A stretch of DNA of 64,000 bases from Deinococcales bacterium (GCA_031414595.1 JANNVX010000086.1:48686-112685), one strand, 5' to 3'; positions 1 through 64,000 are shown, counted from the first letter of the stretch. Numbers and translations: made by a program. The notes: a model not told the origin generated them from the letters alone.

Positions 1-748
1 CTGGTAGCCCTTTGGGTTTGAGTGGACCAAAACGCGGCGTGTCAATGCCGCGCCTTGCAATTTCTTCGATGGGCATACAACCTTCAAAAAACTCGAGTTT
101 TTCCCAGTCGTGTGGGGTGTGACTGCGTGCCTCCTCGAGTGCCACAAAGAATTTCAGGTATTCTTCTTTGTTAAACGGGCAGTTCAAGTAATCGGCTTCT
201 TGTCCGTAACGCCCAGCGCGGTAGACCACATCCATATTGATGCCTTCAAACTCGAGGACTGGCGCAGCCGCATCATAAAAACTCAGGCGTTCCCCACTTG
301 CAAAACGTTGCACAATATCTTCAGCGAGTGCGTCCGAAGTCAGCGGACCCGAAGCCAGCACCACAATCCCGTCTGGCACTCGAGTCAATTCTTTACGGTG
401 CAGCGTAATGTTTTTGTTAGTCTCGAGCAGTGCCGTGATATAGGCACTAAAACCGTCACGCTCGACCGCCAAGGCATTGCCTGCCGGAATTCGGTTGGCA
501 TCGGCGGCTTGCATAATCGGGGCTTTGGCAATTCGCATTTCGGCTTGCAGTAGTCCCTTGGCGTTGTTGTCACCTTCGCCACCAAAGCTGTTGCTACAGA
601 CCAATTCCGACGCGCCGTGCGAGCGATGAGCTGGGGTCATGCGGCTTGGGCGCATTTCAAAAAGTTGGACGTGTACACCTAAGCTGGCGGCGGCAAGGGC
701 GGCTTGTGAACCTGCCAAACCCGCCCCAATGATTGTTATTTCTTTCAT
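1..748 (-). CDS. trmFO: FAD/folate-dependent tRNA (uracil-54-C5)-methyltransferase TrmFO, 5' part (runs off the window edge)
   Basis: Not in the ORF track. Minus strand from ATG 748 reads MKEITIIGAGLAGSQAALAAASLGVHVQLFEMRPSRMTPAH...ELVCSNSFGG (GxGxxG plus the ELVCSNS signature). TAAACT lies 5 nt upstream. Confidence 0.95.
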   Translation of the reverse strand, partial: MKEITIIGAGLAGSQAALAAASLGVHVQLFEMRPSRMTPAHRSHGASELVCSNSFGGEGDNNAKGLLQAEMRIAKAPIMQAADANRIPAGNALAVERDGFSAYITALLETNKNITLHRKELTRVPDGIVVLASGPLTSDALAEDIVQRFASGERLSFYDAAAPVLEFEGINMDVVYRAGRYGQEADYLNCPFNKEEYLKFFVALEEARSHTPHDWEKLEFFEGCMPIEEIARRGIDTPRFGPLKPKGLP

Positions 749-869
749 AGGCTAGTTTAACTCGAGCAACACGGGCATTTAACTTTGCTTTAATCTTTCT
801 TTACTTTTCTTGCAAAATTCGTGGTGTACCAGTATTTTTATAGGGGTGTTCGCAGCCCCATGCGATTTG

Positions 870-972
870 AGTTCGTCTCACGCTTGTGTGACGCTCGGTG
901 AGTATGCTGATGCGACGCTCAAGCGACGCTCCAAAGAATAAGGTGTGGCTCGAGCAGTAGCAAGGAGAAATT
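870..972 (+). promoter_or_regulatory. Upstream regulatory region, copy 1, with GACGCTC direct repeats
   Basis: Near-identical to 2545-2658. GACGCTC at 890, 914 and 925, with degenerate copies at 879 and 903. AAGGAG RBS before ATG 973. Confidence 0.7.
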
Positions 973-1692
973 ATGAAAAACGTGTTGAAATTTGGTTTAG
1001 TTGGAATCGCCGCCCTCGCCCTCAGCAGCACCCTGACCAACAGCACTGCCCAAGGTCGTTTGGTGTTTGACGGCACATATGCTGTCAGTGGTAAAAACCC
1101 AGATGGTAGCGCCTACGCTGGAACAATGACGATTAGCCCTTATGGTGATGGCTACCGTATGCTCCAAGTTTATGGCAGCACCACCTACCGTGGCATTGGC
1201 AATGACGTTGGTGATTACTTGGCTGGTGCTTATTTGTCTGAGGGTGAACCAACTGTTACTTTGTACCGTGTTTCCGCCGCCAATACCTTGTCTGGTTACT
1301 GGCAAGATTATAGCAGCACCAAAGAAGGTACAGAAGAAGCCACCCTTGCCAGCCGTGCATTTTCGTTTGTGCCTAGCGTCCCAGTTGCCAACACATGGGA
1401 TTACAGTGGCTCTTACGCAATTAAAGGCACAAATCCAGATGGTAGTGCTTATACTGGCAGCATGATTCTGACCACCTACGGTGATGGCTACCGTGCATCG
1501 TTTGCCAGTGGCGGAGTTGCTTTGCGTGGAATCGCCAATTACATTGGTAACAACTTAGCCATCGCTTGGTTGACTGGCAACATCCCAAGTGTCAGCATTT
1601 TTACTGGTAATCCACGTACTGGCAACCTGACTGGTTACTGGCAGGATTACAACAGCCTTAAAGAAGGCACAGAAACCGCCACTTGGCGCTAA
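973..1692 (+). CDS. Secreted two-repeat beta-rich protein, paralog 1
   Basis: Sec signal peptide, two internal repeats GxYxxxGxNPDGSxYxGxMxI...GDGYR...LxGYWQDY...EGTE, and an RBS. Confidence 0.85.
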   Translation: MKNVLKFGLVGIAALALSSTLTNSTAQGRLVFDGTYAVSGKNPDGSAYAGTMTISPYGDGYRMLQVYGSTTYRGIGNDVGDYLAGAYLSEGEPTVTLYRVSAANTLSGYWQDYSSTKEGTEEATLASRAFSFVPSVPVANTWDYSGSYAIKGTNPDGSAYTGSMILTTYGDGYRASFASGGVALRGIANYIGNNLAIAWLTGNIPSVSIFTGNPRTGNLTGYWQDYNSLKEGTETATWR

Positions 1693-1741
1693 AGTCCCCA
1701 AATCCTCTTGGGTTTTCAATGCACTAACATCATGGAGTTCT

Positions 1742-2464
1742 ATGAAAAATATTTTCAAATTTGGTCTAGCAGGAATTGCTGCTGTCGTTCTTAGCAGCAC
1801 CCTCACCAACAGTGCTGCCCAAGAACGATTGCAGTTTGCTGGGACGTACAACATCAAAGGTAAAGGCACGGATGGCACAGCCTATACTGGTACAATGACG
1901 ATTGCTCCGTATGGCGATGGCTATCGTCTGGCACAAAGATTTGGCGACGAAACTTACCGTGGTATTGCTACAGATATAGGCGATAACTTGGGTGTGGCAC
2001 TGCTCAGTGGCGGTAAGCCCCAAGTGACGATTTACCGTGTCACAAGTGGCAACACCATGACTGGCTTTTGGCAAGATTACGACAATCCCAAAGAAGGCAC
2101 AGAAGAAGCCACTGTATCAGGAGCTACTGCTTTCTCGGGTGCTTCAAAAGTGCTTGCCGCCGCAACTTGGAACTACAGTGGTACATATGGCATCAATGGT
2201 AAAAATCCAGATGGCAGTGCCTACACTGGAACAATGGTTGTGTCCGACTACGGGGCTGGTTACCGTGTCAGGTTCACCTCTGGTGGCACAACGTGGCGTG
2301 GTATTGCCACCTACATCGGAAGTTACTTATCAATCGCTTGGCAAGCTGGTGGCATACCCCAAGTTTCGGTTTTTGCGGGCAATCCAACCACTGGCGAACT
2401 CAAAGGTTATTACCAAGATTATGACAGCCTGAAAGAAGGCACAGAAACTGCAACCTTGAAATAA
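1742..2464 (+). CDS. Secreted two-repeat beta-rich protein, paralog 2
   Basis: Same architecture and motifs as 973-1692. GGAG RBS. Confidence 0.85.
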   Translation: MKNIFKFGLAGIAAVVLSSTLTNSAAQERLQFAGTYNIKGKGTDGTAYTGTMTIAPYGDGYRLAQRFGDETYRGIATDIGDNLGVALLSGGKPQVTIYRVTSGNTMTGFWQDYDNPKEGTEEATVSGATAFSGASKVLAAATWNYSGTYGINGKNPDGSAYTGTMVVSDYGAGYRVRFTSGGTTWRGIATYIGSYLSIAWQAGGIPQVSVFAGNPTTGELKGYYQDYDSLKEGTETATLK

Positions 2465-2476
2465 CGATGTGGCTCG

Positions 2477-2510
2477 AGACCTCGAAAAAAGCGTACTTTT
2501 CGGGGTCTTT
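2477..2510 (+). terminator. Probable intrinsic terminator after paralog 2
   Basis: Stem AGACCTCGAAAA...TTTTCGGGGTCT followed by T-rich sequence. Confidence 0.55.
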
Positions 2511-2544
2511 ACTTATTCAAGTGGGCAATTTTTGAAGTTTCAAT

Positions 2545-2658
2545 AGTTCGTCTCACGTTTGTGTGACGCTCGATGAGTATGCTGATGCGACGCTCATGCG
2601 ACGCTCATGCGACGCTCCAAAGAATAAGGTGTGGCTCGAGCAGTACCAAGGAGAATTT
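2545..2658 (+). promoter_or_regulatory. Upstream regulatory region, copy 2, with three perfect 11-bp repeats ATGCGACGCTC
   Basis: (ATGCGACGCTC)x3 at 2585-2617. Otherwise near-identical to 870-972. Confidence 0.7.
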
Positions 2659-3378
2659 ATGAAAAATATTTTGAAATTTGGTTTAGTTGGAATCGCCGCC
2701 TTCGCATTCAGCAGTAGCCTGACCACCAGTACCGCCCAAAGCCGTTTGATGTTTGATGGTGAATACAGGGTAACGGGTCTAAACCCTGACGGTAGTGATT
2801 ACGGCGGGGCAATGACCATTGCTCGTTATGGTGATGGGTATCGCATTACCCAAGCCTTTGGTAGCGATACCTATCTTGGAATTGGCAATGATATGGGCGA
2901 CTACTTAGCTGGGGCTTTTATTTATAATGGCAAACCAGTTGTTAGCTTGTATCGTGTTATCGATGCCAACACCTTGTCTGGTTTCTGGCAAGAATTTGAC
3001 AGTACCAAAGAAGGTCAAGAAAAAGCAGTCCTTAACAATGCCACATTTTCGTTAATTCCAGCTGCCCCTGTTGCAACCACCTGGAATTACAGTGGTACTT
3101 ATGGTATCAAAGGCACTGCTCCCAGTGGTGCGGCATATACCGGAACGATGGCGCTGACAAACTATGGTGATGGCTACCGTGCTTCTTATGTCAGTGGTAC
3201 GACAACTTGGCGAGGAATTGCCAGTTACATTGGTAAGTACCTAGCAATTTCTTGGCAAGCAGGAAATAATGTTCAGGTTTCGATTTTTGAAGGCAATCCA
3301 CGTACTGGCGACCTCAAAGGCTACTGGCAAGATTACAATAGCCTAAAAGAAGGCGCAGAAACCGCAACACTAAAATAA
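2659..3378 (+). CDS. Secreted two-repeat beta-rich protein, paralog 3
   Basis: Start moved to ATG 2659 (AAGGAG RBS; MKNILKFGLVGIAA matches paralog 1). Confidence 0.85.
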   Translation: MKNILKFGLVGIAAFAFSSSLTTSTAQSRLMFDGEYRVTGLNPDGSDYGGAMTIARYGDGYRITQAFGSDTYLGIGNDMGDYLAGAFIYNGKPVVSLYRVIDANTLSGFWQEFDSTKEGQEKAVLNNATFSLIPAAPVATTWNYSGTYGIKGTAPSGAAYTGTMALTNYGDGYRASYVSGTTTWRGIASYIGKYLAISWQAGNNVQVSIFEGNPRTGDLKGYWQDYNSLKEGAETATLK

Positions 3379-3487
3379 GAAACCAGCCCTCGAGACTCCA
3401 GAAACATAATTTTTTGGAGTTTTTGCTCCCGCCAACGCAAAACAAATAAGCGCTGACTCGAGTACCACAAGTACCACTCGGAGGCTT

Positions 3488-4243
3488 ATGAAAAATATGT
3501 TCAAGTTCGCTTTGGCAGGTATCGCTGCCATTATTCTCAGCAGCAGCTTAACCACCAGCACTGCTCAAGGTCGTTTGGCATTTGAAGGAACGTATGCCGT
3601 AACAGGTAAAACCCCAGATGCGGCTGCCTACTCTGGTACAATGACCATCGTGCCTTACGGACAAGGCTACCGTATTACCCAAGTTTTTGGGATTTATACT
3701 TATTACGGAATTGGTACAGCCGTGGGCAATAATCAAGTAGGGGACTTTTTTGTAGCCGCTTTTCTGCACGAAAACCAATCAAGTTTGAGTCTGTACGCGG
3801 TCACGGCTGCCAATACTTTATCCAGTGTTTGGCAAGATTATGACAGCACCAGACGCGGCATAGAACAATCTGTTTTAGCGAACCGTAGTTTTTCAGTCAT
3901 TCCAAGTCTGCCTGCCCAGAACAATTTGGATTACTCTGGAACGTATCGGGTTGCGGGTACGGACTCAGGTGGTGTGGCATATTCAAATTATGTTTACGTC
4001 TCGCGTTCAGGCAGTGGTTACATCGCACAGCGTTACTACCAGCGTTATTACGCGAACAACGACACTGCACTTTTTGGCGTTGGAGGCAAACTTGATGGGT
4101 TTCTTGTTTTTGCTTGGAATTACAACGGTGTACCAAGGATCTCGGTTTACGAAGGCAATCCTGATGTGAATGGTAAAATGGTTGGTTTTTGGCAATCGTA
4201 TGATTCTCTAAAAAGAGGTTCAGAATCGGTCTACCCAGAATAA
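3488..4243 (+). CDS. Secreted two-repeat beta-rich protein, paralog 4 (divergent)
   Basis: Same signal peptide and repeat skeleton, with insertions (NNQV, YYQRYYANND). GGAGG RBS. Confidence 0.85.
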   Translation: MKNMFKFALAGIAAIILSSSLTTSTAQGRLAFEGTYAVTGKTPDAAAYSGTMTIVPYGQGYRITQVFGIYTYYGIGTAVGNNQVGDFFVAAFLHENQSSLSLYAVTAANTLSSVWQDYDSTRRGIEQSVLANRSFSVIPSLPAQNNLDYSGTYRVAGTDSGGVAYSNYVYVSRSGSGYIAQRYYQRYYANNDTALFGVGGKLDGFLVFAWNYNGVPRISVYEGNPDVNGKMVGFWQSYDSLKRGSESVYPE

Positions 4244-5547: not shown

Positions 5548-5628
5548 GTTGTAAGTCTAGTCTAAAAACCTAAAATATGACATAATTTAGGGCATTGCGT
5601 ACTTTGGTTGGTAAAGGGGATTAGCAGC

Positions 5629-6663
5629 ATGGCTTCGTTGGATTTTGACTTTGAGAAAAAAGTGTTCTTAGAATTTTATGATTCTCATTTAACAAAATTA
5701 CTTGGATTTGTTGAAAAAATAGTAGATACACTTCAAGACTTAGTTAAAGAATTACCTGAATCTGATGGCTTTATGTTTTTGGGACGAGTCAAAGATAAAA
5801 ATGAATGTATCGAAAAATTTCTCCGAAAATACAAAAATGATCTTGAAGCAAAGCGTGAAGAATATACAATCAAAGATTCTATTTCAGATTTGGTTGGTTT
5901 TAGAATTGTCTGCATTTATGTAAATCAAATTGATTTAATCAAAAAAGCACTTATTGATGAATTTGAAATGCTCGAAGAAACCAATAAAATCGAACAAATT
6001 CAAGCAACTGAAAATACTTTTGGTTATCAGGCTTTGCATATGGATATGAAGTTGAGTCAAAATTATTTACAGATACGAGAATACAAGCAGTTTTCTGGGT
6101 TGCAATTTGAAATTCAAATCAGAACTATTATTCAAGATGCTTGGAGTGTTGTTGACCATAAGATCAAATACAAAAAAGAGATCCCCATTACGCTAAAACG
6201 AAAAATTAATGTCCTATCTGCACTTTTTGAACTAGCAGACCGAGAATTTATGTCCATTAAAAACGAAAATACGTTTTTAATACAAGCCAATACGCAAATG
6301 ATTTCTAATGCCATTGCTAACCAGAACCCGTCTAACTTAGGTTTAGATATTGTTTCTTTTACGGGTTTTCTGCGAAGTAAATTTCCTGATGCAACCTTTA
6401 AGGTTGAAGCGATAGAAAGATTTTTTAATGAATTGCAAGCCAAGAATGCTGACCTAAGTCTTGCTGACTTGGTTTTGTTATATGAGACAAATTATGACTT
6501 GGTGAAGCAATTTCAATTAGAATACAAGTTAAATTTTAATGCTTTTACTTTTTTGCGGCATTCCCTTTATCTCGCAGACAAAAACACCTATGCCTTGCTT
6601 TTGAGAGAATATCAAGTAGTAAAACTAAACCACTGGTTAGAAAACGAAAAACCGCCACCTTAA
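5629..6663 (+). CDS. RelA/SpoT-domain protein (small alarmone synthetase-like) with C-terminal extension
   Basis: Motifs GRVKxxxxxxEK, DLVGFRI, GYQALH and EIQIRTIIQDAWSVVDHKIKYK. AT-rich gene. ATG 5629 follows GGGGA. Confidence 0.85.
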   Translation: MASLDFDFEKKVFLEFYDSHLTKLLGFVEKIVDTLQDLVKELPESDGFMFLGRVKDKNECIEKFLRKYKNDLEAKREEYTIKDSISDLVGFRIVCIYVNQIDLIKKALIDEFEMLEETNKIEQIQATENTFGYQALHMDMKLSQNYLQIREYKQFSGLQFEIQIRTIIQDAWSVVDHKIKYKKEIPITLKRKINVLSALFELADREFMSIKNENTFLIQANTQMISNAIANQNPSNLGLDIVSFTGFLRSKFPDATFKVEAIERFFNELQAKNADLSLADLVLLYETNYDLVKQFQLEYKLNFNAFTFLRHSLYLADKNTYALLLREYQVVKLNHWLENEKPPP

Positions 6664-6814: not shown

Positions 6815-9061
6815 ATGACCCCGATGCAGCGCCTAAGACCCATTCATTGGGATGAAGTAGTTGGACAAGAACACGTCAAGGACGTGTTAAGACCAGCTTT
6901 GGAACGTGGGCGGATTGGTCATGCCTATCTGTTTAGTGGTCCGCGTGGTGTCGGCAAAACCACCACGGCACGGCTGATTGCCATGACGGTTAATTGCGAA
7001 ACGGCAGGTGTCAAACCGTGTGGTACGTGCGATTCGTGTAAAAGCGTGATTGCAGGGCGGCATCCAGATGTTCTCGAGATTGATGCTGCCAGCAACAACA
7101 GCGTGGATGATGTCCGTGACTTGCGTGAAAAAGTGGCGCTGCAACCGATGCGAGGCGACAAAAAAGTCTATATCCTCGACGAAGCCCATATGATGAGTAA
7201 AAGTGCTTTTAATGCCCTCTTAAAAACCCTTGAAGAACCGCCGAGCCATGCGGTTTTTGTGCTTGCCACGACCGAACCAGAACGTTTACCAGCCACGATT
7301 CTCAGCCGTTGTCAGCATTACCGTTTTCGGCGTTTATCGGCGGATGAAATCGCGGGGAAACTCTTAAAAACCGCAACTGCCGAAGGGGTCAATCCATCGC
7401 CGCAAGCCTTAAATTTAATTGCTCGAGCCGCCGACGGTGCAATGCGTGACGGCGAGAGTTTACTCGAGCGTTTGTTGTCCTCGGGCGAACCGAATTTAAC
7501 CCTCGAGATGGTTGAAGGTGCGCTTGGTTTGCCACCCCAAGACCGCGTTGAAGCCTTGGCGTTTGCCTTGGCTCGAGGTGACACAAAGCGTTTGATGCAG
7601 AGTTTAACTGCCTTTTACTCGGATGGTTTTGCGCCGCGCACGATTGTTGAACGGGTTAAAATTGCGCTGCGTGACCAATTACACGCCCAGCTTGGTTTAA
7701 GTAAAAACGTGACTGAAACATTTGCCGAAGTCAATTTGCTGCGTTTAATCAAAGCCCTTGATGAAGAAGACGGGCGTTTTGCACGGTCATCTGACCTGAT
7801 TGCCTTAGAGATGGCGTTCACCAAAGCGATGTTAGCCCCAGACTCGAGCAGTGAGGCGGGTATGGTTTCACCAGCCCTAGAATCCCGAGTCGCCAACCTC
7901 GAGAAACAAGTTCGAGGCGCATTCCAAAAAGTGGTAGACGATGCCTTAAAAGCCAGTGGACAACGCGCCCCGAGTCAAGTTCCAGACTTTGACCCAATGG
8001 CAAGAACCCCGCGCCGTCCAGCCACCCCAGTACAACAAGATGAGCCGCCATTTGAAGTGCCAGAATCTCGAGCAGAGCAACCTCGAGTCTCAGAACTGCC
8101 ACCATCTCGAGTTTCAGAACTCGCCCGAGAAAAAACGCCACTTGGCTCGAAAGGCTGGGCGGATGTGATTCTAAAAGCTGACTTGCGCTTGCGAGCCATT
8201 CTCAAAGAAGCGGTTGGGCATCTCAGTGCCGATACTTTGGTGATTGAGTACAGCAACCCAAAACACAAATGGCACGCTGACCAGGTGGCTGCCAAACTCG
8301 AGGAATTGGCGGCGCTAACCCAACAAGTCATTGGACAGGGCATTGCCCTTGAACTGGTCATGCCAGACGGCACTAAAAAAAACTCGAGAACCGTTCATAA
8401 CCCCAGTACAAGCTCCTCAGCCGCTCGAGTAATTCCGGCTGTTTTGGAGAATTTACAACCGTTGGTGCAACCTGAACCAGAAATCCAAATTGTCCAACCT
8501 GAACCAGAAATTCAACCTGTGCAACCTGACCCTGAACCTACCGTAGGGGCGAGGCATGCCTCGTCCGAACCCGAAACGCCCCTTGCCTTGCCCGAACCCG
8601 AAATCCCCGAATCTCTTTTTCTCGAGCCTGAACCCAATAAAACCGCCTTTCGAGTCGCCTCAGATTTAGCCTTTGATGCGCTTGGTTCAAACCCTGCCAA
8701 AGCGGGTTTGTTTAGCCCTGCCGAATTTATTGCGGCGCTCGAGCCAGATGCCGTAACCACTGAACCATTTTTTGAGGACACACCAATTCCTACTGAATAT
8801 AGCCTTCTCGAGACTTATGACTTAGAAACCAGTGCCGATGCACCACCATTGGCTGCCCTTGAAATGGATTTTGGCGACCTCGAAAACACAACCCCAACCA
8901 AAGTCGTCTCGAGTCTTGTGGGACATCCGAATTATGCTTTGGTCAGTAAACTGTTCTCACATCGGGTGCGTGAAATTGGTAAGCTCGAGGTCAAAACGGT
9001 GATTGCCGAGGATGACACAGCCAGCACACTGCCAACGCTGCCAACCGATGATTTGGAGTAA
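6815..9061 (+). CDS. dnaX: DNA polymerase III subunit tau/gamma
   Basis: GPRGVGKTT Walker A, Cys zinc motif, EIDAASNNSVDD, DEAHM, NALLKTLEEPP and SRC. Long Pro/Glu-rich C-terminal region. Confidence 0.96.
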   Translation: MTPMQRLRPIHWDEVVGQEHVKDVLRPALERGRIGHAYLFSGPRGVGKTTTARLIAMTVNCETAGVKPCGTCDSCKSVIAGRHPDVLEIDAASNNSVDDVRDLREKVALQPMRGDKKVYILDEAHMMSKSAFNALLKTLEEPPSHAVFVLATTEPERLPATILSRCQHYRFRRLSADEIAGKLLKTATAEGVNPSPQALNLIARAADGAMRDGESLLERLLSSGEPNLTLEMVEGALGLPPQDRVEALAFALARGDTKRLMQSLTAFYSDGFAPRTIVERVKIALRDQLHAQLGLSKNVTETFAEVNLLRLIKALDEEDGRFARSSDLIALEMAFTKAMLAPDSSSEAGMVSPALESRVANLEKQVRGAFQKVVDDALKASGQRAPSQVPDFDPMARTPRRPATPVQQDEPPFEVPESRAEQPRVSELPPSRVSELAREKTPLGSKGWADVILKADLRLRAILKEAVGHLSADTLVIEYSNPKHKWHADQVAAKLEELAALTQQVIGQGIALELVMPDGTKKNSRTVHNPSTSSSAARVIPAVLENLQPLVQPEPEIQIVQPEPEIQPVQPDPEPTVGARHASSEPETPLALPEPEIPESLFLEPEPNKTAFRVASDLAFDALGSNPAKAGLFSPAEFIAALEPDAVTTEPFFEDTPIPTEYSLLETYDLETSADAPPLAALEMDFGDLENTTPTKVVSSLVGHPNYALVSKLFSHRVREIGKLEVKTVIAEDDTASTLPTLPTDDLE
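8375..8400 (+). other. dnaX A8 slippage/frameshift site with a -1-frame stop
   Basis: ACT AAA AAA AAC at codons 520-523. The -1 frame reads K-L-E-N-R-S-TAA (8398-8400). Confidence 0.75.
8543..8566 (+). repeat. GTAG-family REP-like palindrome inside the dnaX coding sequence
   Basis: GTAG-GGGCGAGGC-AT-GCCTCGTCC. Same family as the intergenic copies at 33071, 52921 and 57569. Confidence 0.7.
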
Positions 9062-18028: not shown

Positions 18029-18171
18029 GGTACTTTAACAGGCTCGAGGCATACAAGTCTCGAGCCTTGGAAACATTCGCGGTTAAAAGGATGATATTTA
18101 CTTGCTGAACAGAATTTTCTCGAGTTTTGAAGATTTTCTTCTTCTTAGCAATAATCGTAGTATTTTATCGT

Positions 18172-39569: not shown

Positions 39570-39616
39570 TTTACATGGCTCGAGACCAAATTTACCTCTG
39601 CTCGAGACCATCTGAT

Positions 39617-41433: not shown

Positions 41434-41516
41434 TCAGAATGCAGCGCATGACCAAAGAAACAATTCTCGAGGCTGAAGAGACTCCTGTACTCGAGGGAAC
41501 GAACGCAGAACTCGAG
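41434..41516 (+). repeat. Left direct repeat (copy of the scpB 5' end)
   Basis: 83 bp with 6 mismatches to 47864-47946. Ends at CTCGAG. Confidence 0.9.
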
Positions 41517-41582
41517 CTATCAGAGGAGACTGAACTCGAGAACATCAATTCAGAATTTGAAGGCATGGGTCAGGTGCTTTAA
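41439..41582 (+). pseudogene. Truncated scpB 5' fragment (47 codons)
   Basis: MQRMTKETILEAEETPVLEGTNAELE matches the ScpB N-terminal extension. TATAAT upstream at 41423. Confidence 0.7.
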
Positions 41583-41749
41583 TGCCTTATACTTGCGCCG
41601 CCCTTAATCGTGTGCATACTTAAAAACAGACCGCGAATAAGCGAGTTATTGCTTAGATCATGCTCTAGTTGCAACAAGACCTGATCCAACTTTTCCAAGT
41701 GGTCATAGGCTTCGGCTCTAAACTCGCCCATGAAGGCTGCCAGATTCAT
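41579..41749 (-). pseudogene. Truncated CheA-type Hpt domain fragment
   Basis: MNLAAFMGEFRAEAYDHLEKLDQVLLQLE...FLSMHTIKGGAS stops just after the phospho-His motif. Confidence 0.7.
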
Positions 41750-41888
41750 GACACTATTTTGCCATACTTGACATGGTTTTGTGTACTTCCCACTGCCAGC
41801 AATCTTATAAGGCATAATAGATTACAATTAACGATTTCTGAAACGTGATAGGTAAGGTCACAGTTAAAACTATGCTTTTTAGTACAAC

Positions 41889-42860: not shown

Positions 42861-42893
42861 AATACCCTTTGAGACAATATAACAGAGATTTTC

Positions 42894-43583: not shown

Positions 43584-43606
43584 AAATATCCTTTCCTATT
43601 TGTGTA

Positions 43607-43634
43607 GCCCAAGGAGAGAATTCTCCCCTTGGGC
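43607..43634. other. Strong stem-loop between the toxin and immunity genes
   Basis: GCCCAAGGAGAGAA/TTCTCCCCTTGGGC, a near-perfect palindrome. Confidence 0.65.
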
Positions 43635-43642
43635 AGTGTATT

Positions 43643-46600
43643 TTAGATATTAGGGTTAGCAAAAACCCTTGAAACAGCAATCCCATTTGTTGTGATGATG
43701 TACTCAAGTTCACTTGGTCGTTTCGGATATGTAGGATCTGTGTACTTCAGTTTAACAGTTAGTGAAACAGTATCTCCAGCACGCACAGAAGCTGCCATAT
43801 TTCTCTCTAAAGCAGATAATGCGCCCGTATTGAGTGTACTTCGGATAGGCACAATGTTATTTGAACGCGATCCTCCAGCCCCACCTAATACATACGCTAG
43901 AATATGTCCCGCCTGATCTAGGCTATCACCAGTTACTACGTCAATTGCACCATTTGCCACTGTCTCACGTCTTGCGGTTCTCGTTGGATTTGTCCCACCA
44001 TTGATGTATGTACTATCTAGTACAGCTGTAACTTGGGTTATTAAATCTCCAACTTTGGTTACTGTTGTTGGACAAAGATTTTTTGGTACTGCTCGGGTTT
44101 GAAGGGTTATTTTTCCTGGCGATGCGGCTGCCGCCAATCTCTTTGCAACACAGTACACGGAGGCTTCAATATCTGCAATTCGGACTTGTGCTTCTATATT
44201 CAAAGCATCGTATCTTGGGTCTTGAATATCATCATTAATTTTGCCCAGTGCGGCTTTGGGTTGTAATTGTAATTCATCTGCATAAACTTTCACGGAGGCT
44301 TCAACTCTATCGTTACATTCTGTTCCGCAATCATTGATGCCCTTAACAACTTTCCCAAAGGCTGTGTCTAAATCTGTCTTTAGCCCATCAACTGTTTTCC
44401 CAGCGTCTACACCTTCTTGAATAATCTTTTCAATGCCGTTAGAAACACCTTTTGTACCTTGCTTGCTTGGCTTGAAGACCTTGGCAAACTTGGCGTATAG
44501 CTCGCCTGTAACTGGTGAAATATCAGCAATTACGCCAACGCCAGCCAGTACAATCATTCCTACACCTAGGGTTTGGCATTCTTGGGTTTGACAGGCTTTC
44601 ACCGTCTCGAGGAAGTCCTTACCACTGCCAATAAAGGGTATGAAACTGGTTGTAAAGTTCTTTGCGTCTTCCCAGAAACCATCTTTTAAGTAACTGTTCC
44701 ATTTTAGAACAGCTGTGGCGGAGTCATTGGTTAGGATATGTCCCCAGAAATTGGCAGTCACGGCTGGAATTGGGTACTTAAAATCTGGAATATCGGCAAT
44801 ACCTACTGGTGGGGTGTAGGTTGCAGTGACAGTGCTGCAATTATTGAGCAGTGCATTGTCTGGCATTTTGTTAATCCAGTCGCTGTTGTCTGTACCGCAG
44901 TTGGGATTGCCGTACATGCTAATTTGGGTTAAATCTAGCTTATCGCCGTTTAAGGGGTAGGCATTGCTTGGCAGGGTGACTTCAATAAATGCTTTGCCGT
45001 TTTCCATGACACAATCGCCGCAGTCAGATAACAGTGACGGGTTGGTGGTTTTGAAGGCGGCTTTGAAGTACCCGTTAGCGGTGGTCATCAGTGCGCCAGT
45101 GTCATCCACAGCGTATACAGGCACTTTGAATTTAATGTTGCCGTTATTTACATCACTTTGGCGTAAGCGCACGGTTAGCATCAATTCGGTTGTGCCGTTA
45201 AAGTTGCCTTTGTTTTCAGTGGTGTACGGGGTGGCTTTGTCACCTGGTATCATTTTGTCTGGTAGTACAGCCATATAGATTTTGGGTATCCGAAGCCCAC
45301 CAATTACATCAAAACGGTAGGTTTGGTCAAATAGACTCGAGGTCACATGGAATTGACTATTGCCTTGGGCTTGTAGCACAGGTACATCGGTGCTACGAAT
45401 TCGCACAAATTCGCATAAATCTGGGTTATTGGAGTTCTCGAATTTCAGGTGAGGGGTTTGAACTTGGTTGTAATAAGTCAGTACAGAACTGCAAAATACA
45501 TTCCTAAAATTACTTCCATTGCTCCAAGCATTCCAACGGGTAGAAACTCCCGGGAAAGCAGCGCTTTTGTGCATCACATATGGAAAGTAATCAATGTAGT
45601 TTGTACCCGCTTGTGGACGGGCTGCATATGGGCGAATCACCGAACGAGAGGCAGGTAGATTATCGAGCGGGTCAACGGTTTTGGCTCGAGTCAAACTGGG
45701 GTAGTTAAAAGCTGGGCGAAAGAAGGCATTTTGTGGTTGTGCGGTAATGTCTTGGGCTTTGGCTACCACATAAGCACGGTACGTGTCGGTTTGACCTTTA
45801 TTATCGGTCACGGTGAGTTTAACAATGTGTTCGCCGGCATTAAAGGTATGGGTGGTTTGTGCGCCAGTGGCTGTGGTGTTATCGCCAAAATTCCAAGTGT
45901 AAGTTAAAGCGCTGCTGCCTGTGGAGGTTACTGCATCGAAACTCACATTAAACGGAGCAATCCCAAAACTTGCGCCTGAGCCAAAGCTGCTCGAGAGTAC
46001 AAATTTGGCTTTTGGCTTGGGTTGCCAACGGGTAAGCCAAGTTTCGTTTTGGTAGGCAACACTACCGCCGCCACTGGTGCGGTTGAGCTTTCCACGAATC
46101 AGAGGACGATTATCAATGATTTTGAGTTTCACCACGTAAGTCCCTAGGGTTGGGTAATTGTGGCTGACTCTCGAGCCTGTGCCTGTAGTGTTATCGCCAA
46201 AATCCCATTGGTAGGCAAAACCGGGCAGTGGGTCGCCCGCGTCAAAATTGGCTGTATCAGAACCATTTAGGTTCAGGTTTGGCGAGATATTCTGAATTTC
46301 TGGGAGGATGGCTACTTGAACAGTTTTTTGTTGAGTTCGTCCTGTACTGTCGGTTACGGTTAGATTGGCGTTGTACAAACCCGGATTGGTGTAATTATGA
46401 CTCACAAATGGGCTGGTACTGGTTGTGCCGTCCCCAAAATTCCATTGGTACGTTAAACCTGTTCCGCCAGAGGCACTAGCATCAAAGGTCATGTTTGAAC
46501 CAGCCGTTCCTATGGGTGTCTCGAGGTCAAACGAGGCAAGGGCAGCATCTTCAACGTACCAGCGAACTCTGGGTATGCGAATTGTGTTTAATGGCGTGGC

Positions 46601-47494
46601 AACATCGGTGTCTGTTCCTACCAAGGCGACTTCGCTTGCACCTAGGGCTTGCCCTCGAGTTATTGCACTGGCAGTGTTTTCTTCGGCTCGAGTGACACGG
46701 TTGTTACTTTCGCTGGTCAGTAAAAAATTAAAGGTGAGTTTGAGTGGTAGGTTTGGGAATGTTCCAGCTACTAAAAAAGCGGGTGCTTTGAAGGTCACGG
46801 ATACCGTACCAACATTACACTGGTCGGTTGGACTGGTTTTGCAACTCACGGCTGGGATGACTTTAGAGGTGCTGGATTTTCGGGCTGCAAAACCGTAGTT
46901 TAGAATTGTGTCATTGACAGAAAGTCCAATACCACTTGTAATGGCATCAGCTTTTATTTGGGTGGCTTCGGTTTCGCTAAAGGCTTGAAAATCGGCTGTA
47001 TTAGCATTAACCAGTCCTGTGCTGTACGACAAGTAATTGGATGGTTCAAAGTTACGAGCGGTTTGTACATCGGTGATGGTTTGGTTATTCCAACCAATAA
47101 TACTGGTGAGGGCAGTTCCACCTATTTCGGTTTGGTTGCGGTTTCTGGCAACTAAAGAAAGGTTAGCAAGTGGGTTACTGCTGTTGTTGGTGACTTTGTA
47201 ATTAGCGGTAAAAAACCAGCGTTCTGGACTCGAGTAAAGGCGCATGGTGTAACTGGCTTGTGAGAAACTAACATCGGTGGTGGTTGGGAAAGTGGATTGG
47301 GTGCTGAGTTTTTGGCTGGTTTGATTCTCGAGTGGTACGGGTAGATTTTCGCCTTCTTGTTTACCAACGTACATTTGAAGGGCAACTGTGCCAAGTGGTC
47401 TTGAATTGCTGGATTCGGGCTTAACTGGGTTGGGTTGACCACAGGCAAAAAGAGTTGAAGCAATCAAGAGCGAGATGAGCAGGTTTCTTTTCAT
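43643..47494 (-). CDS. Lipoprotein with 3 PKD domains and C-terminal DNA/RNA non-specific endonuclease (putative polymorphic toxin)
   Basis: Lipobox LFAC, three W[ND]FGD PKD repeats, a pre-toxin-like FIPFIGSGKD segment, and a C-terminal His-Me nuclease DQAGHILAYVLGG...NNIVP...LN.G. Confidence 0.8.
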   Translation of the reverse strand: MKRNLLISLLIASTLFACGQPNPVKPESSNSRPLGTVALQMYVGKQEGENLPVPLENQTSQKLSTQSTFPTTTDVSFSQASYTMRLYSSPERWFFTANYKVTNNSSNPLANLSLVARNRNQTEIGGTALTSIIGWNNQTITDVQTARNFEPSNYLSYSTGLVNANTADFQAFSETEATQIKADAITSGIGLSVNDTILNYGFAARKSSTSKVIPAVSCKTSPTDQCNVGTVSVTFKAPAFLVAGTFPNLPLKLTFNFLLTSESNNRVTRAEENTASAITRGQALGASEVALVGTDTDVATPLNTIRIPRVRWYVEDAALASFDLETPIGTAGSNMTFDASASGGTGLTYQWNFGDGTTSTSPFVSHNYTNPGLYNANLTVTDSTGRTQQKTVQVAILPEIQNISPNLNLNGSDTANFDAGDPLPGFAYQWDFGDNTTGTGSRVSHNYPTLGTYVVKLKIIDNRPLIRGKLNRTSGGGSVAYQNETWLTRWQPKPKAKFVLSSSFGSGASFGIAPFNVSFDAVTSTGSSALTYTWNFGDNTTATGAQTTHTFNAGEHIVKLTVTDNKGQTDTYRAYVVAKAQDITAQPQNAFFRPAFNYPSLTRAKTVDPLDNLPASRSVIRPYAARPQAGTNYIDYFPYVMHKSAAFPGVSTRWNAWSNGSNFRNVFCSSVLTYYNQVQTPHLKFENSNNPDLCEFVRIRSTDVPVLQAQGNSQFHVTSSLFDQTYRFDVIGGLRIPKIYMAVLPDKMIPGDKATPYTTENKGNFNGTTELMLTVRLRQSDVNNGNIKFKVPVYAVDDTGALMTTANGYFKAAFKTTNPSLLSDCGDCVMENGKAFIEVTLPSNAYPLNGDKLDLTQISMYGNPNCGTDNSDWINKMPDNALLNNCSTVTATYTPPVGIADIPDFKYPIPAVTANFWGHILTNDSATAVLKWNSYLKDGFWEDAKNFTTSFIPFIGSGKDFLETVKACQTQECQTLGVGMIVLAGVGVIADISPVTGELYAKFAKVFKPSKQGTKGVSNGIEKIIQEGVDAGKTVDGLKTDLDTAFGKVVKGINDCGTECNDRVEASVKVYADELQLQPKAALGKINDDIQDPRYDALNIEAQVRIADIEASVYCVAKRLAAAASPGKITLQTRAVPKNLCPTTVTKVGDLITQVTAVLDSTYINGGTNPTRTARRETVANGAIDVVTGDSLDQAGHILAYVLGGAGGSRSNNIVPIRSTLNTGALSALERNMAASVRAGDTVSLTVKLKYTDPTYPKRPSELEYIITTNGIAVSRVFANPNI

Positions 47495-47515
47495 AAATAT
47501 CCTTTTAGGGCTTTA

Positions 47516-47542
47516 TGTAACGTTTGTAACGTTTGTAACGTA
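47516..47542. repeat. Three 9-bp tandem repeats just upstream of the toxin RBS
   Basis: TGTAACGTT TGTAACGTT TGTAACGTA. Confidence 0.75.
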
Positions 47543-47863
47543 TAACCGAGTTTCATCTAGCTTTGATACTTTTTTCTGGGCTGTAATTCCGACCTCCTAT
47601 CACCCATTAAACCGATGGTATGTCAAATTTGTATCACGGTATTTTTAGGTTAGACCTATCGTGCTTCACAAAAATAGCATTGATGGAATAAATTCAATCT
47701 AAGATTTTTAACATTCGCCACAATTTCCGAGTGTTCATCATAACTCCATAAGTATTACTGGAAATAAAAATAACAATAACCAGCAAAGACGTAGCCTTTA
47801 CTGGTTAAATGTCAATCTGTTGCGGTAAATTTTTGGTTTAACTGAGCCTGCCTTAAAATCATG

Positions 47864-47946
47864 TCAGAATGCAGCGCATGACCGAAGACCCAATTCTCGA
47901 GGCTGAAGAGACCACCGTACTCGAGGGAACGAACGCAGAACTCGAG
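47864..47946 (+). repeat. Right direct repeat (scpB 5' end)
   Basis: Matches 41434-41516. Confidence 0.9.
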
Positions 47947-58772: not shown

Positions 58773-58844
58773 AAAACTCCTTTGGCTCGAGGGTTAGGCT
58801 CGAGCGATTTGTAAGACTGAAAGGATATGAAACAAAGTAATGTG

Positions 58845-61037: not shown

Positions 61038-61038
61038 A

Positions 61039-62306: not shown

Positions 62307-62327
62307 ATATACAAATTAGCATAATGG

Positions 62328-62359
62328 AATAGCATTGTCAATTTATTGACAATGCTATT
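62328..62359. promoter_or_regulatory. Perfect 15-bp inverted repeat carrying TTGACA on both strands
   Basis: AATAGCATTGTCAAT-TT-ATTGACAATGCTATT. Confidence 0.7.
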
Positions 62360-62469
62360 AGTGAAATACAAATAATTGCATTTTATGACAAGTACGGGCG
62401 TTTAAGAATAGAGCAACTACGAGTCTTCAAAAAGCCAAATTTCCCTCGAGTATTGTGTCAAAATACCGT

Positions 62470-63636
62470 ATGTTTGATTATTTTAAGGCACTTGAAACCT
62501 TATCCCCCGAAGAAAAAGACATTCATGCACTGGTGCGCGAATTTGTGGATAAAGAAATCATTCCCCATGTTGGCGCATGGTGGGACGAAGGCACACTGCC
62601 CCGCGACCTGATTAGCCGAATGGGTGCGCTTGGACTGCTAGGACCAACCACACCCGAACAGTACGGCGGGGCTGGCATCTCGAGTACCGCGTATGGCTTA
62701 ATTTGTTATGAACTCGAGCGTGGAGATTCTGGGGTGCGTTCTAGTGCCAGTGTCCAAGGCAGTTTGGTGATGTACCCGATTTTTGCGTATGGCTCGGAAG
62801 AACAACGCCTGAAATATCTTCCTGAGCTTGCCAGCGGCAAAATGATTGGTTGCTTTGGCTTGACCGAATCCGACGGCGGTTCTGACCCCGGTGCAATGCG
62901 AACAAGGGCAGTCAAAGATGGCGATTCTTATGTTCTGAATGGCTCTAAAATGTGGATTACCAACAGCCCCATTGCCGATATAGCTGTGGTCTGGGCAAAA
63001 CTCGAGGAAAACGGGGTGGATGTCATCCGAGGTTTTATTGTGCCAAGGCAAGCCAAGGGGTTCAGCACACCAAAAATACTGCACAAACAAAGTCTACGTG
63101 CCAGTATTACCGGTGAAATTGTTCTCGAGGACTGCCGCATTCCGCTCGAGAATTTACTGCCAAAATCTGGTGGACTAAAATCACCACTTGGCTGCCTGAC
63201 CCAAGCGCGGTACGGCATTGCGTGGGGCGCGTTGGGCGCACTCGAAGCTGTTTATACCGGAACCCTCGAGTACACCAAAACCCGCACGACTTTTGGCAAA
63301 CCGATTGCCGCACGGCAACTTGTGCAAGACAAACTGACTTGGATGGCAACCCAGCACACGCTAGGGCTGCTGATGGCAAAACGCCTTGGCGAACACAAAG
63401 ACGGCGGCACAATGAATTACGCCCAAGTCAGTATGGCTAAACGCAACAATGTGCGAGTAGCATTACAAGGCGCGCGGTTGGCTCGAGAATTACATGGCGG
63501 GAACGGGATAACCACCGAGTACCCAATTATTCGGCATATGCTGAACCTCGAGACGGTGGACACTTATGAAGGAACGCACGACATTCACACCCTGATTGTC
63601 GGACGGGATTTAACGGGTTTGAATGCCCTTGAGTGA
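62470..63636 (+). CDS. Acyl-CoA dehydrogenase, glutaryl-CoA dehydrogenase-like
   Basis: Motifs ERGDSG.RS..SVQ.SL, FGLTE..GGSD, KMWITN and TYEGTHDIH. Confidence 0.9.
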   Translation: MFDYFKALETLSPEEKDIHALVREFVDKEIIPHVGAWWDEGTLPRDLISRMGALGLLGPTTPEQYGGAGISSTAYGLICYELERGDSGVRSSASVQGSLVMYPIFAYGSEEQRLKYLPELASGKMIGCFGLTESDGGSDPGAMRTRAVKDGDSYVLNGSKMWITNSPIADIAVVWAKLEENGVDVIRGFIVPRQAKGFSTPKILHKQSLRASITGEIVLEDCRIPLENLLPKSGGLKSPLGCLTQARYGIAWGALGALEAVYTGTLEYTKTRTTFGKPIAARQLVQDKLTWMATQHTLGLLMAKRLGEHKDGGTMNYAQVSMAKRNNVRVALQGARLARELHGGNGITTEYPIIRHMLNLETVDTYEGTHDIHTLIVGRDLTGLNALE

Positions 63637-64000
63637 TAAAAACGATATATTCATCTTTTGAACCACTAGCACCCAACATATTGTAACCAAAACAAATGAG
63701 TTGCCCAAATTCCTAGACTCGAGTTCACACACGCTCGATACTCGAGCCTCAAAGGTCAAACATTCCTGTCTCTGACGACATCCACTCTATTTTCTCGAGA
63801 CCATGCCGAAACGCTTGACAGGACTACAAATGGATGATACATTCTTTGTCGCTCTGCATGAGGGCAATTCCGAAAGGAAAAGCAACCTCGACAAAGCGCG
63901 CTCCTTGACAGTTTGAGTGCAAAGCGAGAACCCGAACCAATGGACACATTGGTTTAATCCAAGAAGAGAAATTCGTTTTAATTCTTGTGGTTCTAAAATC

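Follow-up and report, generated by a model that had tools for sequence, protein, structure and literature searches.

How highly iterated palindromes (HIPs) arise and what they do has been a long-standing question ever since HIP1 was described. Short words whose frequency is shaped by the proteins that read them are also familiar from other bacteria: Dcm/Vsr very-short-patch repair shapes CCWGG in Escherichia coli, and Dam/GATC sites are read by MutH and SeqA, with effects on site frequency that are modest, well under twofold. The documented HIP cases that we found are all cyanobacterial (Elhai 2015, PMC4390886; Xu et al. 2018, PMC5861425). In the account of Elhai (2015, PMC4390886), each HIP is paired with a cognate methyltransferase, the density is about 1 per kb and the one-off variants are biased to the outermost positions; for HIP1, periodic spacing along the chromosome has been described (Xu et al. 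2018, PMC5861425). Nocardia possesses an orphan methyltransferase specific for CTCGAG, and clusters of this motif adjoin dnaA (Blow 2016, PMC4752239). In Helicobacter, CCGG is over-represented about 1.4-1.5 times despite cognate restriction-modification systems, an excess that the authors say they cannot explain (Rusinov 2015, PMC4687349), and uptake sequences are non-palindromic words of 9-12 nt the mismatched forms of which are over-represented as well (Bakkali 2007, PMC1939737). How does the CTCGAG palindrome of an uncultured member of Deinococcales compare with these systems?

The window, i.e. the whole stretch of 64,000 nt that was analysed, comes from a lineage whose nearest locus in the genome collection shows 96% identity. 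Direct counting gives 310 CTCGAG sites with a mean spacing of 206 nt (Table 1). The sequence-only reading had described a hyperabundant, HIP1-like palindrome from a hand count of about 47 sites in the first 10 kb; the exact count is 47, and the over-representation is stronger than had been claimed. Across 100 dinucleotide-preserving shuffles, the mean is 6.95 sites (sd 2.52, maximum 13), with none of the 100 reaching 310. Markov models of orders 0 to 3 predict 14.0, 7.2, 17.0 and 79.1 sites; the order 4 expectation reaches 264 solely because the pentamers that feed it, CTCGA and TCGAG, are pieces of CTCGAG. In the raw hexamer ranking, CTCGAG is at the top, and the commonest hexamer free of overlap with it reaches 85. 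HIP1 proper (GCGATCGC) is not present: the 64 kb contain no CGATCG at all, and the host belongs to Deinococcales, not to cyanobacteria.

Table 1. Features of the 64,000-nt window that bear on the distribution of CTCGAG
Feature	Coordinates	Strand	Remarks
CTCGAG palindrome, exact, 310 copies	1..64000	.	4.7/kb in ORFs, 6.4/kb between
trmFO, 5' part	2..748	-	5 CTCGAG sites
Four tandem LIC10280-family paralogues	973..4243	+	CTCGAG sites 0, 0, 1, 0
RelA_SpoT-domain gene	5608..6663	+	GC 0.32, zero CTCGAG
dnaX	6815..9061	+	18 CTCGAG sites, 8.0/kb
Intergenic CTCGAG pair, 16 nt apart	18043..18064	.	sites at 18043 and 18059; extended complementary arms (GGCTCGAG ... CTCGAGCC)
Intergenic 22-25-nt tandem repeat	39552..39631	.	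three CTCGAG: 39579, 39601, 39626
80-nt direct repeat, left copy	41437..41516	+	diverged scpB 5' end, three CTCGAG
Low-GC (0.42), motif-poor island	41517..47865	.	15 CTCGAG, 2.36/kb vs 5.12/kb elsewhere
80-nt direct repeat, right copy	47866..47946	+	true scpB start; 21-nt tandem repeat carries CTCGAG
Intergenic CTCGAG pair, 13 nt apart	58786..58804	.	sites at 58786 and 58799

The most trivial explanation would be an artefact of codon usage, of Leu-Glu abundance or of CTCGAG travelling inside a mobile element or dispersed repeat. The Leu-Glu frame does hold 57% of the coding sites, and CTC and GAG are common codons in GC-rich relatives; nevertheless, the probability of this explanation is practically negligible. 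In the 60 window ORFs of at least 100 aa, the three frames contain 159, 62 and 57 sites compared with means of 16.1, 6.2 and 4.3 in 200 synonymous-codon shuffles (maxima 29, 12 and 12), a 10-13-fold excess in every frame. For all coding sequences, 278 sites are observed against 26.2 +/- 4.8 under synonymous shuffling (300 shuffles, maximum 41) and 13.2 under codon-order shuffling, and intergenic DNA holds 35 sites in 5,472 nt where 0.84 would be expected. The Leu-Glu dipeptide, at 2.2-2.4x, occurs 296 times in the window proteins against 135 expected; 159 of these 296 are encoded by CTCGAG, a number that the surplus of about 160 matches, and outside Leu-Glu the codons CTC and GAG are minor in the window. 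It is the motif that produces the surplus of Leu-Glu rather than the reverse. Tandem repeats contribute a handful of sites at most, and the flanks from -15 to +15 carry no more than 0.05 bit per position, unlike those of a REP- or MITE-like dispersed repeat; since the flanks are without information, there is no larger repeat unit behind CTCGAG. Thus, synonymous shuffles, flank analysis and the frame and intergenic counts rule out the codon, dipeptide and repeat artefacts, in agreement with the original contention that a word found in all three frames and between genes cannot be explained by codon bias alone.

What is iterated is precisely the 6-bp palindrome, which is intolerant of mismatches and has no flanking preference. 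Taken together, its 18 one-off variants occur 159 times where order 1 predicts 179, a ratio of 0.89, and the CYCGRG relatives are at expectation in the window (CCCGGG 7, CTCGGG 16, CCCGAG 15). By position pair, the one-offs number 74 (outer), 48 (middle) and 37 (inner), with no clear depletion or excess, and this gradient is largely accounted for by transitions versus transversions together with the CTAG effect; the transition one-offs (35 for TTCGAG plus CTCGAA, 25 for CTTGAG plus CTCAAG) are undepleted. The base 5' of the site is A in 93 cases, C in 49, G in 82 and T in 86, so that there is no preferred neighbour. An exact, flank-free word of this sort is what a dimeric, type II-like DNA enzyme, either a methyltransferase or an endonuclease, recognises.

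The same features bear on the possibility that CTCGAG is a signal akin to DNA uptake sequences, with competent cells preferring CTCGAG-rich DNA and the word accumulating by molecular drive via transformation. Members of Deinococcota are naturally transformable, and CTCGAG, similarly to uptake sequences, is found in genes and between them, leaves a peptide imprint and is scarce in foreign DNA. However, mismatched forms of uptake sequences are enriched, whereas the one-offs of CTCGAG fall slightly short of expectation and its flanks are uninformative; furthermore, the window shows no enrichment of inverted pairs, and the avoidance of the word in Deinococcus (see below) is left unexplained. We therefore consider an uptake signal improbable.

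The sites are rather evenly spread: 21 spacings are 30 nt or shorter where about 41 would be expected, and only 9 against 27 are under 20 nt. The intergenic doublets to which the sequence-only reading drew attention do exist (Table 1; the third begins at 58786 rather than 58785) but are unenriched, close pairs being below chance. This even spread, along with conservation above background, is compatible with an abundant, methylation-independent protein that binds CTCGAG in the course of nucleoid or chromosome organisation, each site being under weak selection, and a role in chromosome architecture has indeed been proposed for HIP1 (PMC5861425). Such a protein nevertheless appears quite unlikely given that helical phasing (10-11 nt) is absent within 150 nt, where the 3-nt coding period alone appears, and that neither the purge of CTCGAG from Deinococcus nor its carriage by phages would be explained. 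To our knowledge, the reading of an exact 6-mer with about 5 sites in every kb has no precedent among nucleoid proteins.

Comparison with related loci shows that CTCGAG sites are preserved at the DNA level, with the synonymous positions inside them frozen. Sites are kept in relative L002 in 38 of 43 cases, compared with 57.6% of other hexamer positions (binomial P 1e-5), and in relative L003 in 12 of 16 cases compared with 27.4% (P 1e-4). When only peptide-conserved positions are considered, 31 of 32 sites are identical against 68.4% of other hexamers (P 1.6e-4), and in a second comparison of this type, 10 of 11 against 46.9% (P 0.004). In TrmFO, two columns with a universal Leu-Glu are spelled CTCGAG in motif-rich lineages and never in Deinococcus (none of its 74 codon pairs at universal Leu-Glu), and in three other columns Leu-Glu is present in the clade of the window, with VR, IA/ID or DA in Deinococcus. 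CTCGAG is kept and slowly gained through a per-site fixation bias that acts on DNA, not on protein, outweighs synonymous drift and even shifts residues towards Leu-Glu; comparing the count of the motif with that of its one-offs under a reversible mutation-fixation model puts this bias at about 3.5-4 (2Ne*s).

Externally acquired DNA long remains poor in the word. The four LIC10280 paralogues, an array common to L002 and L003, and the RelA_SpoT gene, which are resident but look foreign, jointly hold a single site over 4,071 nt, where 19 would be expected. The motif-poor island carries genes for a beta-propeller protein, for an unknown protein and for a 1,283-aa protein with PKD and Endonuclease_NS_2 domains. 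Its boundaries had been placed at CTCGAG, and the positions (41516/47946) are right, both copies of the direct repeat terminating exactly with the word (41511-41516 and 47941-47946); the junction at CTCGAG, however, is explained by the duplicated scpB 5' end, which holds three sites in 80 nt. The suggestion that rearrangement breakpoints are enriched at CTCGAG did not survive the corresponding check (13 of 264 alignment breakpoints within 6 nt, 13.0 expected), and neither did the assignment of a site to an internal dnaX repeat: the 27-nt tandem repeats (8465-8608) contain zero CTCGAG, and a chance 15-nt pair alone contains it.

The trait is a property of lineages rather than of a single genome; it spans the phylum, is reversed in Deinococcus and is common to temperate phages, none of which the sequence-only reading had noticed. 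CTCGAG ranks first among hexamers by observed/expected ratio in four of the six locus groups (589 vs 14.5, 292 vs 19.5, 434 vs 53 and 308 vs 70), with the top rank found in the uncultured Deinococcales clade, Meiothermus and Trueperaceae. Under the order 1 model, the enrichment is graded among lineages at about 40x, 15x, 8x and 4x, and codon-aware counts for the rich groups are 716 vs 110, 354 vs 106.5 and 235 vs 98.8 expected. Simple Markov ratios are inflated in GC-rich relatives, where CTC and GAG are common codons. The first 50 kb of plasmid pTT27 of Thermus thermophilus HB8 are unenriched (39 vs 79, codon-aware), so the trait is not universal in Thermales. In 32 Deinococcus loci, there are 19 sites against 173 expected (rank 4090 of 4093 hexamers) and, under the codon-aware null, 17 against 123.3 +/- 7.6; this is the pattern of restriction-site avoidance, a palindromic type II site being strongly under-represented by both composition and codon nulls. 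In the TrmFO tree, 33 of the 34 CTCGAG-poor rows lie inside one clade of 37.

Temperate phages mirror the CTCGAG state of their hosts, those of a rich host being equally rich. Meiothermus phages MMP17 and MMP7 carry 87 and 90 sites against 11 expected (rank 1), and in the coding sequences of Riverbug, a related Thermus phage, 22 are present against 35 expected. A D12-class methyltransferase of MMP17 and MMP7 is the sole one that we found tied to a CTCGAG-rich genome. It was rejected as a lineage-specific candidate because the Dam-like phage family of which it is a member is very widespread, with at least 8,000 proteins at E <= 1e-10; among the best 120 of these at least 8,000 matches, the top two (90% identical) include one named Meiothermus, and one at 69% is named Verrucomicrobium.

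So what maintains the word? We would give an even chance to the hypothesis that CTCGAG is a palindrome of the HIP kind that is read by a type II-like enzyme and upheld by the per-site fixation bias. In the rich lineages, the word would be read by a DNA methyltransferase that is specific for CTCGAG and lacks an active partner nuclease. The bias might reflect selection for marked sites or, alternatively, repair or gene conversion in favour of the marked strand in these polyploid, recombination-prone bacteria; in Deinococcus, the activity of a cognate nuclease would make CTCGAG costly. No DNA methyltransferase or classical restriction enzyme was detected among the 60 window ORFs, no Vsr-like or XhoI-like gene within the 64-kb window, and no analogues of vsr, mutH or seqA were seen there. 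The methyltransferase reading also has to face the G-meC ratchet of Elhai, which predicts G before the site, in contrast to the mixture of bases given above, as well as the fact that a methylation-independent binding protein would yield identical sequence statistics; strong mutational conversion of the Vsr type predicts a depletion of transition one-offs that is not observed.

A function-free alternative, a sequence-specific drive by repair or gene conversion, would dispense with methylation: a mismatch-specific nuclease that acts on near-cognate CTCGAG would always repair towards the word, which then spreads as a by-product in all resident DNA. The occurrence of temperate phages at the host level, the frozen synonymous positions within sites and an intergenic enrichment at least equal to the genic one are all compatible with such a drive, and over-representation of HIPs may, according to Elhai (2015, PMC4390886), be a repair epiphenomenon. 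Yet no specific one-off variants are depleted, long-resident foreign genes are still CTCGAG-poor, such that conversion, if any, must be slow, and a nuclease of this kind was not seen among the window ORFs; we deem this drive unlikely. Returning to the type II-like reader, we tentatively suggest, with somewhat more doubt than confidence, that Deinococcota possess an ancient, phylum-wide CTCGAG-reading system with a flipped sign, whereby the word is driven to 2-6 per kb in Meiothermus, Trueperaceae and uncultured Deinococcales, with enough force to double Leu-Glu in proteins and to leave its mark on resident phages, and is purged in the Deinococcus clade.

No prior account of CTCGAG hyperabundance in Deinococcota was found in the literature searched. 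CTCGAG thus appears as a denser and simpler (6-bp) HIP-like case in a second phylum, and the contrasts on offer, namely graded lineages, near-total avoidance in a sister clade and host-matching temperate phages, provide comparative and experimental leverage without counterpart in cyanobacteria. If the flipped-sign hypothesis is true, this would be the first case of a HIP system beyond cyanobacteria; its hosts can be cultured (Meiothermus, Truepera), Deinococcus serves as a natural negative control, matched phages are at hand, and the question of how HIPs arise, by selection or by methyl-directed repair drive, would become directly testable. More generally, a DNA-level word can reshape a proteome, as the 2.2-2.4x level of Leu-Glu demonstrates. 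In practical terms, CTCGAG is a sharp marker of native versus acquired DNA in these genomes, and it predicts how their DNA is cut by XhoI.

Among the known systems, Dcm/Vsr and Dam/GATC resemble the present case in that site frequency is shaped there by site-directed repair or by methyl-site readers; unlike those effects, which stay under twofold, the enrichment of CTCGAG is 10-40-fold. CCGG in Helicobacter is likewise a type II site that is over-represented in a whole genus, but only about 1.4-1.5 times (PMC4687349), compared with about 8-40x for CTCGAG by simple models and 2.4-10x by codon-aware ones. The uptake sequences (DUS/USS) of Neisseriaceae and Pasteurellaceae, as described (PMC1939737), share with CTCGAG a density of at least about 1 copy per kb, dispersal through genes, a peptide imprint, scarcity in foreign DNA and an accumulation explicable by molecular drive; unlike these longer, non-palindromic words with enriched mismatches, CTCGAG is exact or nothing. 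In Nocardia, a methyltransferase without a restriction partner recognises this same hexamer, but what is described for this actinobacterium is origin-local clusters, not genome-wide hyperabundance (PMC4752239), and the window is without a dnaA/origin region. Like HIP1 (GCGATCGC) and the alternate HIPs (PMC4390886, PMC5861425), CTCGAG is a short, GC-rich palindrome that is tens-fold over-represented in genic and intergenic DNA, is conserved above background and contains a type II recognition site. Unlike the HIP octamers at about 1 per kb, each described with a cognate methyltransferase, it is a hexamer at about 5-6 per kb in another phylum, with no methyltransferase found among the 60 ORFs of the window and no preferred flanking base, hence no sign of Elhai's G-meC extension; and, again unlike the HIPs, it has a sister clade, Deinococcus, that avoids the word almost wholly.

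CTCGAG occurs 310 times in the window, against 6.95 +/- 2.52 (maximum 13) in 100 dinucleotide-preserving shuffles, and is the top hexamer by raw count, with 85 copies for the best hexamer that does not overlap it; the hand count of about 47 sites in the first 10 kb made in the sequence-only reading is reproduced exactly by our recount (47). Markov models of orders 0, 1, 2 and 3 predict 14.0, 7.2, 17.0 and 79.1 copies, respectively. The maximal-order (order-4) null, which expects 264 copies (ratio 1.17x), masks the signal and yields a meaningless value because CTCGA and TCGAG are mostly CTCGAG itself (310 of 358 and 310 of 336 occurrences, respectively), and it was replaced by the low-order and codon-aware nulls.

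So could coding bias account for the word? In 60 non-nested ORFs of at least 100 aa, which cover 58,528 nt, there are 278 sites, compared with 26.2 +/- 4.8 (maximum 41) in 300 within-gene synonymous codon shuffles and 13.2 under codon-order shuffling. Each reading frame (159, 62 and 57 sites) is enriched on its own over the synonymous shuffle (16.1, 6.2 and 4.3), which bears out the earlier contention that all three frames are hit and that codon bias is insufficient. Outside the ORFs, 35 sites are found in 5,472 nt where 0.84 are expected, a density of 6.4/kb that exceeds the 4.7/kb in genes. The dipeptide argument is in fact reversed. The encoded proteins contain 296 Leu-Glu pairs against 135 expected from composition (the dipeptides EL, LD, LQ, IE, VE and LK stand at 0.71-0.93 of expectation), and 159 of the 296 are spelt CTCGAG, although outside Leu-Glu CTC encodes only 175 of 1,997 Leu and GAG 160 of 867 Glu. 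Therefore the DNA word has added some 160 Leu-Glu pairs to the proteins; it is the word that drives Leu-Glu and not coding bias that causes CTCGAG.

The repeat unit is the bare hexamer. The flanks of the 310 sites, from -15 to +15, carry no more than 0.05 bit; the 18 one-mismatch variants total 159 against 179 expected (order 1), and the counts of the degenerate relatives CCCGGG, CTCGGG and CCCGAG match expectation. Inter-site distances are near random (mean 206, median 143), with a scarcity of spacings below 20 nt (9 against 27), and tandem repeats supply just a handful of the window sites. Given the uninformative flanks, the near-random spacing and the few tandem copies, there is no larger repeat, mobile element or paired-site architecture. 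The intergenic doublets singled out in the sequence-only reading are not enriched, as pairs at 30 nt or less (21 against about 41) are half as frequent as chance predicts. A 16-nt spacing that recurs five times in the window was discarded, being found once against five expected in 11 other loci of the clade (the near-copies of the window, L001 and L002, were left out). When the window sites were pooled with 794 from 11 related loci, no helical phasing at 10-11 nt was detected, the only periodicity being the 3-nt coding period. The proposed association with rearrangement breakpoints is likewise not supported: for 264 non-redundant alignment ends and indel edges from 36 rich sequences, a crude survey because HSP ends are fuzzy, a site is present within 6 nt in 13 cases, where chance gives 13.0 (P 0.54), and within 3 nt in 13 cases, where it gives 8.8 (P 0.10). 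An internal dnaX repeat was said to contain CTCGAG; the tandem repeats of the gene lack the word.

How widely is this word favoured? The TrmFO fragment encoded at the window edge shares 96% identity with contigs of MAGs that carry the label Deinococcales bacterium and 64-70% with the named relatives Deinobacterium, Deinococcus and Meiothermus. When about 4,000 hexamers were ranked by observed/expected ratio (order 1) in 80 fetched loci (about 1.3 Mb), CTCGAG ranked first in the clade of the window (8 loci, 589 against 14.5), in further uncultured Deinococcales (5 loci, 292 against 19.5), in Meiothermus (11 loci, 434 against 53) and in Trueperaceae (11 loci, 308 against 70); in Deinococcus (32 loci), it ranked 4090 of 4093 (19 against 173), and in 13 mixed loci without a group, 308th (161 against 88). 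The comparison was repeated with a codon-aware null based on roughly called ORFs and synonymous shuffling, which errs on the conservative side since the codons that make up the motif are inflated by it; this gave 716 against 110, 354 against 106.5, 235 against 98.8 and, for Deinococcus, 17 against 123; the Leu-Glu ratios, in the same order, were 2.38, 1.30, 1.24 and 1.03. When 81 TrmFO rows were placed on a tree, all but one of the 34 poor rows grouped in a single clade of 37 (SH-aLRT 83), and the rich rows comprise Meiothermus, Trueperaceae and two uncultured clades beside Deinococcus; this is a quick, midpoint-rooted single-gene tree that does not fix the polarity of the change. At query position 218 of TrmFO, a universal Leu-Glu, the rich groups use CTCGAG in 10 of 12, 2 of 3, 7 of 11 and 8 of 18 rows, and the 37 rows on the Deinococcus side never do. 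Three further positions (108, 165 and 83) carry Leu-Glu in the window's clade but VR, IA/ID or DA in Deinococcus.

Individual sites are also conserved. The related locus L002 is 88.8% identical to the window over 8,002 columns, and the more distant L003 is 75% identical. In L002, 38 of 43 window sites are intact, compared with 57.6% of other hexamer positions (binomial P 1.2e-5), and in L003, 12 of 16, compared with 27.4% (P 1.0e-4). At positions encoding an unchanged peptide, all six nucleotides of CTCGAG are retained at 31 of 32 sites in L002 (68.4% for other positions; Fisher P 1.6e-4) and at 10 of 11 in L003 (46.9%; P 0.004); thus, synonymous positions within the word are constrained. Gains and losses between the window and L002 are balanced, with five sites private to each.

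Some genes have hardly acquired the word. The LIC10280 family, which takes its name from a Leptospira protein, has four tandem paralogues here; these and a GC-poor RelA_SpoT gene contain a single site in 4,071 nt, where 19 would be expected (P 1e-7). The paralogue array is present also in L002, with three copies to the window's four, and in L003, and hence is older than the split from L003, so that CTCGAG builds up slowly on the scale of 25% sequence divergence. The 6.3-kb low-GC island similarly has 2.36 sites/kb against 5.12/kb elsewhere (P 5e-4). Its 80-nt direct repeat is a diverged copy of the 5' end of scpB, and owing to a 21-nt coding repeat this stretch carries three sites. The claim that the island boundaries hold CTCGAG stands insofar as both repeat copies end at a CTCGAG, but it does not extend to any general excess at breakpoints. 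No integrase was seen in the island; its 1,283-aa product is possibly a secreted nuclease or toxin-like protein, judging from its domains.

In mobile DNA, the first 50 kb of the Allomeiothermus silvanus plasmid pMESIL01 show moderate enrichment (63 against 17.8; CDS, 49 against 25.7). The word is the top of about 3,860 hexamers in the Meiothermus phages MMP17 and MMP7, with 87 and 90 sites, respectively, where 11 are expected (CDS, 69-72 against 24); the two count as one lineage, given that they share an identical methylase gene. The Thermus phage Riverbug (host HB8), a relative of these two with 66% TerL identity, has 22 sites in CDS against 35, and in the first 50 kb of two lytic Thermus phages there are 6 sites against 18.7 (P23-45) and 0 against 3.5 (phiYS40). 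Thus, phage DNA copies the state of its host, which argues against CTCGAG restriction in Meiothermus and for a force that affects whatever DNA has resided in these cells for long. In Thermus thermophilus HB8, the first 50 kb of plasmid pTT27 might be mistaken for enriched, given that 45 of its 49 TCGA (122 expected) lie inside CTCGAG, but the codon-aware null (CDS, 39 against 79) identifies these as residual, mostly Leu-Glu codons in DNA that avoids TCGA. Riverbug has 25 TCGA against 102, 23 of them inside CTCGAG; the avoidance is 2.5-4-fold in the two sequences (pTT27, 1-50000), with the leftovers mostly Leu-Glu codons, and TaqI-type avoidance seems unable to clear TCGA from the CTCGAG context.

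What mechanism might be responsible? A 6-bp palindrome that is exact, has no preferred flanks and tolerates no mismatch is the signature of a dimeric, type-II-like enzyme, and a word that ranks at the top in some lineages of a single phylum and nearly at the bottom in another is consistent with a recognition system that they share. According to Elhai (2015; PMC4390886), each cyanobacterial highly iterated palindrome (HIP) is paired with a cognate methyltransferase, and Blow (2016; PMC4752239) describes an orphan CTCGAG methyltransferase in Nocardia. Because of these analogies, the rich lineages would be expected to possess a CTCGAG methyltransferase and no active nuclease. The per-site fixation advantage over one-mismatch hexamers is estimated at about e^3.5 to e^4, from (310/7.2)/(159/179) or its order-0 equivalent. 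The sequence statistics are compatible with two sources of this advantage, selection for marked sites and a preference for the marked strand during repair or gene conversion. A drive is somewhat favoured by the phage data and by the surplus of sites between genes; any such drive would be weak per event, given that one-mismatch hexamers are not depleted and foreign genes gain sites slowly.

A search for the cognate enzyme found no methyltransferase genes in the 64-kb window. Local tblastn of the loci recovered a single homologue of the C5 methylase of phage P23-45, in a Trueperaceae locus (L064), within a cluster that looks like a restriction-modification or defence island. An amino-methyltransferase motif screen of the loci returned three ORFs, namely, one without a Pfam family, one TauE exporter and one, on plasmid locus L082, overlapping the annotated nrdE. 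The gene pair of MMP17 and MMP7, at first a promising candidate, was rejected, its methylase belonging to a generic, very widespread Dam-like family; the Pfam match of the small partner is weak (E 0.003), and Riverbug lacks the pair and has, next to its integrase, a solitary 'restriction endonuclease' gene. The window also encodes a Uma2-family protein. Cyanobacteria and Deinococcus-Thermus, the two phyla known for iterated palindromes, both have an expansion of this family, which is a coincidence and nothing more.

Other palindromes are avoided to an extreme degree in the window: GGCC is absent (270 expected), GATC occurs 27 times against 151, and 24 of the 64 palindromic hexamers are missing, including GAGCTC, CTGCAG, GTCGAC, TTCGAA, TGGCCA and TGCGCA, which suggests a heavy history of restriction systems. 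The GGCC loss is common to eight close loci (L001-L005 and L008-L010) and does not extend to L006, L007, L011, L012 or L023, and so arose later than the CTCGAG trait. Neither tRNA genes nor Rfam families were found in the window. The region at 58840-58950 comprises two adjacent hairpins, with C and G runs around a TCGA-A/T core and no Rfam match, and may be a terminator pair or small structured element. The family match of the ornithine-cyclodeaminase-family ORF starts at residue 72, so its actual start is probably further downstream.

Features of the window and of the comparison loci
Sequence	Coordinates	Feature	Remarks
Window	973-4243	Four LIC10280-family tandem paralogues	Almost without CTCGAG
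Window	29674-30225	Uma2-family gene	PF05685, 'putative restriction endonuclease'
Window	37516-38655	Aminotransferase ORF	Overlaps next ORF by 217 nt as listed
Window	38439-39569	Ornithine-cyclodeaminase-family ORF	
Window	41517-47865	Low-GC island, directly upstream of scpB	80-nt direct repeat on both sides (41437-47946 overall)
Window		Island protein, 1,283 aa	Three PKD domains and C-terminal Endonuclease_NS_2
Window		Other island products	PD40/beta-propeller protein; protein without assigned family
Window	58840-58950	Long G/C-tract inverted-repeat region	Between two substrate-binding-protein genes
Trueperaceae locus L064	16346-20732	Truncated MmeI-like protein; 335-aa ORF of no assigned family; C5 cytosine methyltransferase (PF00145)	Methyltransferase runs past locus end
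Phage MMP17 (L085)	26062-27388	D12-class N6-adenine methyltransferase and small DUF559/Vsr-like protein	Identical to MMP7 pair
Phage MMP7 (L087)	1654-2953	D12-class N6-adenine methyltransferase and small DUF559/Vsr-like protein	Identical to MMP17 pair

We found no paper on CTCGAG abundance in Deinococcota, the Thermus methylome literature included, and where the word does appear, in PMC3903499 and PMC8034619, the context is an unrelated one (honey bee and viruses, respectively); an earlier mention may exist in the supplements of Blow 2016 or in REBASE. We file CTCGAG in Deinococcota as a system of the HIP kind, with a palindrome unreported for this phylum in the searched literature. The phenomenology is like that of the cyanobacterial HIPs, whereas the word, the phylum and the density differ and, here, the sign is reversed in a sister clade.
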